From sequence record NC_054914.1: a stretch of DNA of 64,000 bases. The stretch is one strand, 5' to 3'. The notes under the pieces are model-generated. The model was not told where the DNA came from, searched no databases, and saw only the letters and a list, made by a program, of their open reading frames with translations. This document shows, piece after piece, positions 3,119 to 64,000 of the stretch. Source of the stretch: Escherichia phage vB_EcoM-fFiEco06. Made by a program: the position numbers and the translations under genes. Numbering within the stretch: position 1 is the first letter of the stretch; each line of letters starts with the position of its first letter.

Positions 3119-3161
3119 AGTATTTCCTTAGGTTAATTGAGATTTAAAATCCATGAGAGTA

Positions 3162-3338
3162 TTATACTCCGGATAGTTTGTAAACTATTTCAACATCGCC
3201 TTTTGCTGCTTTATAACCTTCAGCCCAAGATACAACCGAGTTTTTATCCGAAGATTCAAATTCTGGCATTGGGCTTTCGCCAATGTTCACGCAGTATGTT
3301 TCTTCATTTTCGTCGAACCAAATAATTAAAGTAGTCAT
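3162..3338 (-). CDS. small hypothetical protein (58 aa), absent from ORF track
   Basis: ATG 3336-3338 preceded by GGAGAAA SD; MTTLIIWFDENEETYCVNIGESPMPEF...; fills an otherwise empty gap. Confidence 0.4.
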   Translation of the reverse strand: MTTLIIWFDENEETYCVNIGESPMPEFESSDKNSVVSWAEGYKAAKGDVEIVYKLSGV

Positions 3339-3713: not shown

Positions 3714-3743
3714 ATAGTACCATGGAAGAACAGGGATGTAAAC
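3714..3743 (-). promoter_or_regulatory. putative sigma70-type early promoter (-35 GTTTAC, 18-nt spacer, extended -10 TGGTACTAT)
   Basis: Minus-strand reading ...AAAACTGTTTAC-(18)-TACTAT; same architecture recurs at 4 other sites. Confidence 0.4.
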
Positions 3744-6592: not shown

Positions 6593-6633
6593 TAGATAGG
6601 GTAATAGTATCACTACCCTATCTAAAAGTAAAC
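6593..6633 (-). promoter_or_regulatory. early promoter embedded in 11-bp perfect inverted repeat (-35 GTTTAC, extended -10 TGATACTAT)
   Basis: TAGATAGGGTA-loop-TACCCTATCTA hairpin 6593-6624 contains the -10; GTTTAC 18 nt upstream (6628-6633). Confidence 0.45.
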
Positions 6634-6867
6634 TTATTTTTTACGAAAAATTGATTTATTTTCTGCTGCCCATTTTTCAATAACTGCAGCAGGACCAGTA
6701 ACAACAATTTTATCACCGTAATCTTCTGCGGCGAGTTGACCGAAATTATCTAATGCATCACGAAGAACTCCATGAGGCATTTCACCCATTTTATCTTTCT
6801 TGCCAGTGTAAATAAACTCAACTTTTACATCAGCAGTTTCAGCAATAAATTCTTGGTAAGTTTTCAT
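6634..6867 (-). CDS. internal protein (IP) family member with capsid targeting sequence
   Basis: N-terminus MKTYQEFIAE-T is the T4 IP capsid targeting sequence (gp21 site after L/I-x-E); start taken at second ATG (6865-6867) with GGAAA SD; track start 6879. Confidence 0.65.
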   Translation of the reverse strand: MKTYQEFIAETADVKVEFIYTGKKDKMGEMPHGVLRDALDNFGQLAAEDYGDKIVVTGPAAVIEKWAAENKSIFRKK

Positions 6868-6893
6868 TTTGATTTCCATTTGGTTTTGTTTTG

Positions 6894-6931
6894 ATAGGGT
6901 AATAGTATCACAACTAAAACCCTATGTAAAC
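6894..6931 (-). promoter_or_regulatory. early promoter with degenerate hairpin (-35 GTTTAC, extended -10 TGTGATACTAT)
   Basis: Same GTTTAC-(18)-TACTAT spacing; followed by identical 30-mer gtaaacaactttgtgaaattattttaaatc also present at 7257-7286. Confidence 0.45.
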
Positions 6932-6943
6932 AACTTTGTGAAA

Positions 6944-7201
6944 TTATTTTAAATCTTCTAATCGTTTCTTCATCTTAGAGCCATTTTTAGCAATTTCTCC
7001 TGCATCGGAGCATAATGCTAAAAGTGCTTTAACTTTAGTTTGGTCTCCTTTAAAAGATGAAGGATCGACCGCAGCAGCAAGTTCTTTAATACGAGAGAAA
7101 AGACGCTCAGCTTCAGCTAAAGCCATTCCAAGCTTTACTTCCATACCGTGGGAAGATTCAGTGATAGTAGTTTTTGTAGCAAACTCTTTGAAAGTTTTCA
7201 T
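6944..7201 (-). CDS. internal-protein-like ORF with CTS-like N-terminus
   Basis: 85 aa; N-terminus MKTFKEFATKTTITE; AGGAAAA SD; lies in the ip locus next to 57B. Confidence 0.6.
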   Translation of the reverse strand: MKTFKEFATKTTITESSHGMEVKLGMALAEAERLFSRIKELAAAVDPSSFKGDQTKVKALLALCSDAGEIAKNGSKMKKRLEDLK

Positions 7202-7222
7202 TTTTATTTTCCTAATTAATTT

Positions 7223-7262
7223 TGATGAGGTAATAGTATCACTACCTCATCAGTATGTAAAC
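7223..7262 (-). promoter_or_regulatory. early promoter embedded in 10-bp perfect inverted repeat
   Basis: TGATGAGGTA-ATAGTATCAC-TACCTCATCA hairpin 7223-7252; loop identical to 6604-6613 but stem sequence differs with full compensation; GTTTAC at 7257-7262. Confidence 0.45.
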
Positions 7263-7960: not shown

Positions 7961-8685
7961 TATAGTACCTTTAGTGTATTTTTAATTTTAGAAAAAAGTT
8001 CTTCAAGAGAACCATCGTTTGTAATTACTAAATCGCCATCACGAATTGGCAATCCAGCTTCTGTAATATGTGTATCATTGGATTTTTGACCAGGACGAAC
8101 TACATGAATTACTGTAGCACCCATCGCCCTAGCCGCATCCATTTCATGATCTTGACGGGTATCAGGAACGATATAATAATCATAACCTGAGTTAAATTTA
8201 TCAAGATAATCTAAAGCAAATAATTTTACCCAGTACATGCGGTCGAAGTTATTAACAATCAAATCCGTACCTAGGGCTTGCATCAGACGACGGACTGACC
8301 ATTGATCTTCAATATTATTTATAACGTCAATAATCTTGTTAAATGCTACGGAATTAACTGATTCTTGTCCTTCGTCATCAAAAACAAACACACCTTTAAT
8401 TGGGCTTTTACCATTAAGATAGCAAAATGCTTGTTCCATAATCGTGATTACTTCTAATTTAGTTAGATTTAAATTAGTCTCACGATCATAGTCAATTCCT
8501 TCAAACTCTTTACGAGTTAAGCAAGGATAGTCGGTATTTGCAGCAAATACTCCCCATGCATAAGCCAATGCATCCTTAATAGGACCAGCAAGTTGGTATT
8601 TAACTGCAGAATAATTGCTCATGATAAAATCAGCAGTAGTATCTTTTCCACTACGCTTTACACCGCTTAAAAAGATTAGTTTCAT
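7960..8685 (-). CDS. 1: gp1 deoxynucleoside monophosphate kinase
   Basis: 241 aa as in T4; P-loop GVKRSGKDT near N-terminus. Confidence 0.9.
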
Positions 8686-8734
8686 ATGTTTCTCCTCAAA
8701 TTTAGTTAAGATTATAACACATGAAACTGAAGCA

Positions 8735-9265
8735 TTAAACTTCCGCTATAATTTTTCCATCTTTTTCTACTTGAAAATACGTATAAGGAATCGTTGCTGT
8801 ACATACTAAAGCCGGGTCTGAATCTTCTGTGTAGCTAAATTCTACTTCAGATAGGTCAGAAACCCAAGGCTTATAAAAATTTATTGACATCACGATTTCA
8901 GTTTTGCTATTATCTAAAATGTAAAGCGTAATGTATTCAGGACCTGTTTTTTGGGCAGTATTTTCACCTGTAAGATAGTTGCTAGTTCCTAGCATCCATT
9001 CATACATTCCTATCCATGACTTAAGTTCTTCATCAACTATAAATCTCACGATGAGTGGATCGTACTCAAATGTAGCACCTGGACGTTGTGCTCGGCCCAG
9101 TCCAAACGGCCCAGTCACGGTATCAGTAACAGGTATTCTAATTCCTGGAATAGGAACTGACTGAGCATTTAAAGTAAAAGCAGATGTAGTATTACTATGT
9201 GGTATTGATACTACAAAGTTAGTTGTATTTGCTTGGTTAAAAATTTGTTGCAGTGCTTGCGACAT
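8735..9265 (-). CDS. 3: gp3 tail completion and sheath stabilizer protein
   Basis: Track ORF (203 aa) starts at TTG; ATG at 9263-9265 with GAGGAA SD gives 176 aa, the T4 gp3 length. Confidence 0.8.
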   Translation of the reverse strand: MSQALQQIFNQANTTNFVVSIPHSNTTSAFTLNAQSVPIPGIRIPVTDTVTGPFGLGRAQRPGATFEYDPLIVRFIVDEELKSWIGMYEWMLGTSNYLTGENTAQKTGPEYITLYILDNSKTEIVMSINFYKPWVSDLSEVEFSYTEDSDPALVCTATIPYTYFQVEKDGKIIAEV

Positions 9266-55083: not shown

Positions 55084-55114
55084 TTTGTGTTCCTCATGTT
55101 ATGTCAGTAAGACT

Positions 55115-55144
55115 ACTATAACACAACACGAGGGACTTGTAAAC
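55115..55144 (-). promoter_or_regulatory. putative early promoter (-35 GTTTAC, 18-nt spacer, TGTTATAGT)
   Basis: Same GTTTAC/extended -10 architecture as ip-locus promoters; lies over the 3' end of the alt-like gene. Confidence 0.4.
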
Positions 55145-62910: not shown

Positions 62911-63197
62911 TAGAACCTCATCTGAAAGCCATGCGATTTAACATTACCGCCGCCAATATCAGAAATATTAATTTCACGCGCAATTGAAGGGTCAATGTCA
63001 ATTTCACGATTGAGTTTAGTGATAGCTAAAGTATCGCGCCCATTTACTGTACGGAACTCTAGAGGACAAACCACATTAACGTAGTTTTTAATCGATTCAC
63101 TGGTAGGTTGCAAATGAGCAGGAAGATCTTTAGGCGCCTTAGAGAAAACTACTTCGCAGAAGTTTTTACGAGTATCAAAATAAGTAGTCATAAACAT
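62910..63197 (-). CDS. hypothetical protein
   Basis: 95 aa ORF. Confidence 0.5.
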   Translation of the reverse strand: MFMTTYFDTRKNFCEVVFSKAPKDLPAHLQPTSESIKNYVNVVCPLEFRTVNGRDTLAITKLNREIDIDPSIAREINISDIGGGNVKSHGFQMRF

Positions 63198-63214
63198 AGT
63201 ATTTTCCTCAGTAA

Positions 63215-63228
63215 GGGGCCGAAGCCCC
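63215..63228 (-). terminator. stem-loop GGGGC-UUCG-GCCCC (minus RNA)
   Basis: Identical hairpin to 2505-2518 and 42824-42837; intergenic. Confidence 0.45.
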
Positions 63229-63238
63229 TCATTTTATT

Positions 63239-63604
63239 TTAAATATCAAATTCGTTAAGAACTACATCAAAGATTGCTTCAAGATGCTCAGGTTTAGCTC
63301 TGTTACTCAGAATATGACGAATCCAAGTTTTAACCAAAAGCTTGCGATTAGCGCCATTCCAGCAAGGATGAGTCCCTAAATCGCGTTGACGGAAATCATC
63401 ATCCAGAGCGATTTTAAAGTTGGAACCTTCCATTGTGATTGAAACCGTGATACCGTTTTCAAATCGCATATAAACGTAATTAGGAGTCATATACTGTTCA
63501 ATTTCGCATACTGAACCATTTTGATGTTTCCAAAGGCAGATGGTATCAATAGAACCTGTAATACCATTAGAAACATATTTACGTTCAAAGTTAATGTAGT
63601 TCAT
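63239..63604 (-). CDS. hypothetical protein
   Basis: Track TTG start 63616; ATG 63602-63604 with GGAGAA SD gives 121 aa. Confidence 0.5.
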   Translation of the reverse strand: MNYINFERKYVSNGITGSIDTICLWKHQNGSVCEIEQYMTPNYVYMRFENGITVSITMEGSNFKIALDDDFRQRDLGTHPCWNGANRKLLVKTWIRHILSNRAKPEHLEAIFDVVLNEFDI

Positions 63605-63629
63605 TTTATTCTCCAAGATGTTTAATTGC

Positions 63630-63669
63630 GGTACAGGTATATAATATCATGTCCTGTACCAAAGTAAAC
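63630..63669 (-). promoter_or_regulatory. early promoter embedded in 8-bp inverted repeat (-35 GTTTAC, 17-nt spacer, -10 TATTAT)
   Basis: GGTACAGG...CCTGTACC hairpin 63630-63660 contains the -10; GTTTAC at 63664-63669. Confidence 0.4.
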
Positions 63670-63673
63670 TATT

Positions 63674-63925
63674 TTATGCAACTTTAATCCAATTATCTAA
63701 ATTTAATTCACCTTTGGCTTTCATTTTTTCAATCAAGAGGTCAGCGGTAATACGACCATTTTGATACCACGTAACATCTTCAGAGTAACCAGTTTCTTTA
63801 TCTTCATAAGTCTCACAGCGAATTTTACCAAGAATCAAAGTTTTTAATTCGTATGTATCTCCAGTAAAAAAGTTAGTTAACATTATTTTCCAAGAGAAAT
63901 CATCAGAAGGACCTTCAGGAGTCAT
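63674..63925 (-). CDS. hypothetical protein
   Basis: 83 aa ORF; no clear SD, start uncertain. Confidence 0.4.
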   Translation of the reverse strand: MTPEGPSDDFSWKIMLTNFFTGDTYELKTLILGKIRCETYEDKETGYSEDVTWYQNGRITADLLIEKMKAKGELNLDNWIKVA

Positions 63926-64000
63926 ACAATCTACAAATTCAAATTGTTCTTTATATAAATGCCACTGAAGTTCTTTAGTTTCGATAGCTTTATAGCCGTC

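Follow-up and report, generated by a model that had tools for sequence, protein, structure and literature searches.

A predicted early promoter of gene 30.7 nested in a stem-loop of conserved structure in a T4-like Escherichia phage

Upstream of gene 30.7 of Escherichia phage vB_EcoM-fFiEco06, a predicted early promoter is nested in a stem-loop whose evolution suggests selection on its pairing. We consider it fairly probable that this element is a T4-type promoter-early stem-loop (PeSL) whose selected stem serves as RNA-level punctuation of read-through transcripts. The element is a rediscovery of an already published class, a correct one since it matches the PeSLs described before, and it is ordinary for T4-like phages. 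Our additions are modest: the compensatory evolution at 30.7, the sense-strand bias of the hairpins, their lack of U-tracts, the two geometries in which they occur and an exact cassette boundary. The window referred to below is the whole stretch of 64,000 nucleotides (sequence record NC_054914.1) that was analysed. All element coordinates are given in window numbering, and the element is read on the minus strand. On that strand it lies within the 69 bp that separate the homologues of T4 genes 30.8 and 30.7, and its parts and neighbours are the following.

63669-63664, minus strand: -35 hexamer GTTTAC, matching the T4 early-promoter consensus.
63663-63647, minus strand: spacer of 17 nt.
63660-63653, minus strand: 5' stem arm GGTACAGG, part of the 17-nt spacer, 5' of the predicted start site.
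63649-63641, minus strand: extended -10, with TG at 63649-63648, one base, and TATTAT at 63646-63641, in the hairpin loop.
63637-63630, minus strand: 3' stem arm CCTGTACC, containing the predicted transcription start at ~63634.
63614-63611, minus strand: Shine-Dalgarno (SD) sequence GGAG, followed by AAUAAAA, a RegB-type cleavage context.
63604, minus strand: ATG of gene 30.7.
63239-63604, minus strand: gene 30.7 (121 aa; Pfam PF06919 Phage_T4_Gp30_7, E 1e-52), the predicted target gene of the promoter.
63674-63925, minus strand: 3' part of gene 30.8 (Pfam Phage_30_8), with stop codon TAA at 63676-63674; a divergent allele compared with T4.

The sequence-only reading of this DNA had described GTTTAC, a spacer of this size and a -10 inside a perfect inverted repeat upstream of the open reading frame at 63239-63604, and this arrangement was confirmed in the sequence. 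The arms GGTACAGG and CCTGTACC form a perfect 8-bp inverted repeat, and the 15-nt loop between them holds the -10. The order GTTTAC-N17-TGA-TATTAT contains every part of a T4 early promoter, namely the -35, a spacer of 17-18 nt and an extended -10 of the form TGn TAnnnT; T4 early promoters have a -35 consensus of GTTTAC, at -36 to -31 (PMC1524935), and the early-promoter consensus was also taken from PMC2988021. The start at ~63634 was predicted from the geometry of the -10, seven bases past it. Directly 5' of the -35 and overlapping the stop codon of 30.8 there is an A/T-rich stretch, CATAAAATA, which is a candidate UP-like element. Nearly the same element is present in T4 at ~129,918-129,880, with identical -35, arms and -10; over the promoter, stem and leader the two phages show few scattered base differences, which fall in the loop, the leader and the SD spacing. 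In T4, the 30.7 mRNA is an early transcript, detected 2 min post-infection, with a RegB site within its SD (PMC9409239). Judged by its sequence, the feature is a host sigma-70 promoter that fits the T4 early consensus and serves gene 30.7 as its early promoter. The T4 GenBank record carries no promoter features, and a literature search for 30.7 and 30.8 returned nothing directly on the two genes; for T4 as a whole, 150 start sites are given in a dRNA-seq preprint (10.1101/2024.04.04.588121).

Folding of the 41-nt hairpin gave a minimum free energy (MFE) of -12.3 kcal/mol (z = -3.46), and the 30.7 hairpins of relatives reached -16 to -18.6 kcal/mol. The RNA predicted to be initiated at the promoter (63634-63595) folded with 0 kcal/mol and presented an unstructured leader with an unpaired SD. 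When an 86-nt read-through RNA was folded, the SD and AUG of 30.7 remained unpaired as well. In the same fold, at 63620-63669, the -35 box GUUUA paired with UAAAC of the leader and lengthened the helix, a pairing that is not kept in all relatives. A search of 63000-64000 with Rfam covariance models, at E up to 1, matched no family. A separate hairpin of the GGGGC-UUCG-GCCCC tetraloop type was observed at 63214-63229, directly 3' of the 30.7 stop codon; its T-run is present on the plus-strand side only, and on the early-gene strand it looks stabiliser-like rather than terminator-like.

The same reading had also proposed that the design is a phage-wide class of elements and not a repeat local to the ip locus. 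A motif scan of the window returned 8 matches to GTTTAC-N16-18-TANNNT where 2.7 were expected; none of 100 shuffles reached 8, and all 8 matches were on the minus strand. For the genome-wide search, the whole genome (167,064 bp) was rebuilt from the window and three fetched loci. The record MG781191.1, that of the Tequatrovirus vB_EcoM-fHoEco02, is 100% identical to the last kilobase of the window, and a position in it equals the window position + 63990. Genome-wide, 34 sites, all on the early-gene strand, had a GTTTAC box (no more than one base off), N16-18, TGn and TAnnnT in this order, together with an SD and a start codon no further than 60 nt downstream. A hairpin of -12 kcal/mol or lower bracketed the -10 at 17 of these 34 predicted early promoters, hairpins initially classed as covering the SD but weaker than -12 kcal/mol being left out of the 17.

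Could the inverted repeat be a product of chance, or a neutral quasi-palindrome beside a real promoter? Perfect inverted repeats of at least 8 bp are common overall (77 in the 64-kb window), and the MFE of the 30.7 element is unremarkable against the window-wide background, at only the 13th percentile of 60-nt windows, a comparison that is a weak test for an AT-rich element and in place of which bracketing-stem and chimera tests were used. For any given hexamer in this genome, the empirical probability of being tightly bracketed by a perfect stem of at least 8 bp is 0.006, yet such a stem was found at 5 of the 34 predicted early promoters (binomial p = 2e-6). Chimeras that joined the upstream half of one promoter to the downstream half of another had a mean MFE of -8.4 to -9.4, compared with -13.0 for the real promoters (permutation p < 5e-5). 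A split at the start site under-scores hairpins in which the 3' arm lies just past the -10, and the test was repeated with the split within the -10. Since the real pairs folded better than the chimeras, the pairing is specific and is not a by-product of the promoter consensus. Stem sequences are diverse among the promoters, and GGTACAGG is not a dispersed repeat. The proposal of a phage-wide class was thus supported by the strong hairpins at half of the promoters, by the diversity of their stems and by the chimera test. The 30.7 element was confirmed as real and non-random; chance or a neutral quasi-palindrome, contradicted by the chimera test and by arms that stay conserved, with compensatory changes, amid varying neighbouring sequence (see below), is disfavoured and to us hardly credible.

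The strong hairpins occur in two geometries. Eight of the 17, including that of 30.7 and those of three ip-locus promoters, have the -10 in the loop and leave the SD free; in the remaining nine, among them alt.-3, gene 1, regB and alc, the 3' arm lies over the SD or the AUG. Predicted early promoters in the window other than that of 30.7 include the following.

7223-7262, minus strand: ip5 early promoter; 10-bp stem TGATGAGGTA/TACCTCATCA with the -10 in the loop; -17.4 kcal/mol, z = -6.25.
6894-6931, minus strand: ip6 early promoter; 7-bp stem ATAGGGT/ACCCTAT around the -10; -13.7 kcal/mol, z = -3.8.
6593-6633, minus strand: trna.4 early promoter; 11-bp stem TAGATAGGGTA/TACCCTATCTA around the -10; -18.5 kcal/mol, z = -4.64.
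55089-55144, minus strand: alt.-3 early promoter; long hairpin with the 3' arm paired with the SD GAGG; -23 kcal/mol, z = -4.97.
8678-8740, minus strand: gene 1 promoter, GTTTAA-N18-TGn-TATAAT; hairpin with the 3' arm paired with the AUG; -17.1 kcal/mol, z = -4.28.
3714-3743, minus strand: e.8 early promoter; no significant hairpin, z = -0.63.

Two of these sites, 3714-3743 and 55115-55144, had earlier been taken as hairpin-free versions of the design. This description holds for the e.8 promoter but not for the second site, which lies in the -23 kcal/mol hairpin with its 3' arm over the alt.-3 SD. At gene 1 (dNMP kinase) the hairpin comprises 13 bp, and its inner helix, beyond the pairing with the gene's own AUG, includes the SD. 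Hairpins of -20 to -24 kcal/mol with 3' arms over the SD were seen outside the window at MG781191.1 positions 61,084 (the regB promoter), 7,640, 51,379 and 164,524; the SD of regB itself is among those covered in this way. A further match at 3156-3185 (minus strand), GTTTAC...TACTCT inside ORF HE2_131, has no TGn and carries TATAAT just 13 nt past GTTTAC, and is probably not an early promoter.

The regions upstream of gp30.7 homologues were gathered from IMG/VR and GenBank phages. A first protein-anchored search yielded close relatives only, and tblastn together with an alignment-based search reached other genera. The two arms do not vary among T4-, RB69- and Dhaka-like phages, in contrast to the loop and the leader; a G.U occurs in the stem of one sequence. 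Marfa-like phages carry the stem GGTGTAGGAGTA/TACTCTTACACC, and one further locus (L043) the stem GGTGAGGGTCT/AGACTCTCACC. When these two types were aligned with the T4 type, 95.6% of cells were paired and 5 of the 11 pairs had changed on both sides; the observed score was reached by none of 500 shuffles, and shifting the partner columns abolished the pairing. Unrelated stems were found at the same position in ZX14-like phages (a perfect stem of 13 bp) and, with yet another sequence, in Roth01-like phages. Moon, Melville and Pet-CM3-4 share a 10-bp stem, CTCCGTTGTA/TACAACGGAG, the 3' arm of which is the SD, and a fully compensated variant of this stem, CTCCGAGGTT/AACCTCGGAG, is present in L057. 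The 5' arm begins 2-3 nt past GTTTAC in all stem types compared, and G.U pairs on the sense strand were found in three independent 30.7 lineages. Quasi-palindromes can be corrected by templated mutation without selection; the compensatory evidence here amounts to about six lineages. On this pattern of change we read the 30.7 stem-loop as being under selection, with its structure conserved and its sequence not.

A comparison of strands bears on the level at which the stem acts. The sense strand folded better than the antisense strand in 19 of 20 strong hairpins, and the mean difference (sense minus antisense) was -5.7 kcal/mol for strong hairpins versus -0.5 for random genomic windows and -1.5 for chimeras; the sense-strand bias in folding is partly compositional. 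The sole exception was the 30.7 element of this phage, in which the antisense fold is more stable (-15 to -16 versus -12.3 kcal/mol for the sense fold) because of a C.A mismatch that is absent in T4. The bias across the hairpins points to a role at the RNA level. At the 30.7 locus alone the strand of action is not settled, since that element is the exception to the bias.

The exception also speaks for a palindrome acting on the DNA itself, whether as an operator bound by a dimeric protein, for example one of early-promoter shut-off or recombination, or as a promoter-modulating cruciform. The inverted repeat, with 8 perfect base pairs and its centre at the -10, would suit such a role, the mechanism of early-promoter shut-off is not understood (PMC3014915), and the authors who defined PeSLs speculated on a recombination protein that binds the stem. 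However, the arms differ wholly in sequence among promoters and genera while their pairing is kept, which argues for a structure and not for a sequence-specific site, and the loops vary in length between 4 and more than 30 nt. A G.T on one strand would moreover be an A.C mismatch in the other arm of a cruciform, and the sense strand is favoured in all but one of the 20 strong hairpins. We regard action at the DNA level as very unlikely.

Gene 30.8 is co-oriented with 30.7 and has its own early promoter ~430 bp upstream. A terminator scan between the 30.8 and 30.7 promoters detected no terminator-like site, and longer transcripts should therefore carry both arms of the stem. Because transcripts from the 30.7 promoter itself are predicted to start within the 3' arm, the stem would form only in sense read-through RNA that comes from upstream.

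As first proposed for PeSLs, the stem-loop would be a terminator or attenuator that isolates a promoter-plus-ORF cassette from upstream transcription. One RB49/phi1 stem-loop did reduce lacZ expression about as much as rrnB T1 (PMC2839356), and the 30.7 element, a stem-loop between two small co-oriented ORFs that each have their own promoter, is placed as an intrinsic terminator could be. The sequence of the hairpins argues against this function. None of the 17 strong hairpins, 30.7 included, is followed by a U-rich tail: the first 8 nt past the stem contain no more than 3 U in any of them, and the majority of tails are A-rich. At 30.7 the tail is CAAUUAAA (2 U in 8 nt), and where an intrinsic terminator has a GC-rich stem, a short loop and a U-tract, this element has a stem of moderate GC content, a 15-nt loop and no U-rich tail. 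The terminator scan flagged no site at the 30.7 hairpin, and the stems analysed here have a higher AT content than the experimentally tested G(n)/C(n) ones. Since it lacks a U-tract, we do not take the 30.7 stem for a classical terminator, and termination or attenuation seems to us an unlikely function of the element.

Another way in which the hairpin could act in RNA is by masking the translation of 30.7 on read-through transcripts, as hairpins do in T4 e, soc, 49 and I-TevI, a mechanism documented for late promoters (PMC3014915). Pairing of the 3' arm with the SD GGAG is seen in the orthologous promoters of Moon, Melville, Pet-CM3-4 and L057, and two elements of the window, at 55144 and 8740, likewise have the SD or AUG covered by the 3' arm. 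The 3' arm of the 30.7 stem, however, stops 15 nt short of the SD in this phage as in T4 and, as described above, neither the SD nor the AUG pairs in the read-through fold. For 30.7 itself, we judge masking of its start to be highly improbable.

Alignment with T4 showed 95-100% identity upstream of the 30.8 start and downstream of the -35 of 30.7, and 35-55% identity across the 30.8 ORF, in a comparison that covered 63673-64043. The identity switches at the -35 of the 30.7 promoter and just past the 30.8 promoter. On this alignment the 30.7 promoter marks an exact recombination boundary, and the 30.8 ORF has been swapped for another allele than that of T4. The location is thus the one known for PeSLs, a plastic region before small ORFs without known function and near indels or replacements, with 30.8 replaced between two early promoters. 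The genes of the 30.1-30.9 cluster are annotated as hypothetical ORFs, and Moon, Marfa and others have an extra ORF upstream. Around a constant promoter and hairpin, relatives combine three types of upstream sequence with four types of leader. In L053 (IMGVR_UViG_2974754850_000001) the 3' arm CCTGTACCACCCAA is retained, and the 5' arm and everything upstream are replaced, which looks like a recombination joint within the promoter; the upstream half of L053 is itself preceded by a strong GC hairpin with a T-run. A whole cassette of promoter, hairpin and SD was found in two copies: the 54 nt from GTTTAC to GAGGA of alt.-3 (window 55091-55144, minus strand) recur identically upstream of alc, outside the window at MG781191.1 ~134,896-134,949 (locus L064), 15.8 kb away. 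A comparison of the alt.-3 and alc copies detected no similarity on either side of the 54-nt stretch. Breakpoints, shuffled types and a repeated cassette fit the published role of such elements as linkers in cassette exchange, as far as sequence comparison can indicate.

PeSLs were defined in RB49 and phi1 by Arbiol et al. 2010 (PMC2839356), with promoter and terminator activity for selected elements, and were extended by Comeau et al. 2014 (PMC4122927) to the T4/PST pair, with the consensus TTTACW-N17-TAYWAT. Like these, the 30.7 element unites an early promoter with a stable stem-loop in a single intergenic element, which precedes an SD, a start codon and a small non-essential ORF. The T4/PST consensus fits it, it adjoins a replaced gene cassette, and its stem is at the positions most common for phi1 stems, between -35 and -10 or overlapping the -10 (PMC2839356). 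It differs in that stems of the PST/T4 pair have been reported to lie immediately upstream of the promoter and to have the form AGNA/TCNT, whereas the 30.7 stem brackets the -10, and in that its lack of a U-tract leaves the terminator half of the PeSL definition unsupported by sequence. The same design at T-even ip loci, in which a T4 early promoter is combined with an AT-rich stem that varies in size, is credited to Repoila et al. 1994 by both later papers (PMC2839356, PMC4122927), through which we cite it. Three examples of that design are present in the window at 6593-7262; the 30.7 stem differs from them in sequence, and its locus is ~56 kb away. The hairpins of T4 e, soc, 49 and I-TevI are a textbook case in which an internal late promoter is part of a hairpin that hides the SD or AUG on long transcripts (PMC3014915). 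They share with the 30.7 element a helix whose 5' strand is upstream of the internal promoter's start, so that only transcripts from a distal promoter fold. Their promoters are late ones (TATAAATA) and their 3' arms cover the SD or AUG, unlike the 30.7 element with its early promoter and free SD; alt.-3, gene 1 and the Moon-type 30.7 orthologues have the SD/AUG covering in common with them.

The mechanism that we favour for the 30.7 stem remains punctuation of read-through RNA. E. coli RNA polymerase would start at ~63634, within the 3' arm, and messages from the gene's own promoter would consequently be without the 5' arm. Their leader and SD would be open, and they would be translatable and cut by RegB at GGAG as in T4. 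Transcripts from the 30.8 promoter and beyond would contain both arms and would form the hairpin just past the 30.8 stop codon, ~17 nt before the RegB site. Cleavage by RegB occurs at GGAG in early SDs and is blocked by RNA structure; after the cut, the upstream fragment is degraded from its 3' end (PMC3014915). The hairpin could protect the 3' end of the 30.8 message after RegB has cut at the 30.7 SD, a role suggested by the geometry and by this published RegB biology; alternatively, it could insulate against or attenuate read-through. Where the 3' arm pairs with the SD or AUG, as in other lineages and at other promoters, the hairpin would mask translation. At the DNA level the conserved block of ~40 bp formed by promoter and hairpin would serve as a homology patch for the exchange of gene cassettes.

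A strong promoter and a recombination joint thus appear to be packed, together with an RNA structure, into about 40 bp between small accessory genes. In the published view the stem is a terminator and the whole unit is a shuffling linker. Exact cassette boundaries at promoters support the linker role; the terminator role is questioned because of the missing U-tracts and the sense-biased folding, and the evidence points instead to control of read-through messages. The observation is of relevance mainly to T4 specialists and to promoter annotation in the many sequenced T4-like phages. We advance one broader idea tentatively and with some doubt: about half of T4-type early promoters may lie in sense-RNA hairpins that form only in transcripts from upstream, and these hairpins may constitute a systematic post-transcriptional code, other than termination, for the promoter from which a message originated. 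If this were true, hairpins of the type that covers the SD would mask both translation and RegB cleavage, and those with the -10 in the loop, including that of 30.7, would protect or insulate the upstream cistron.
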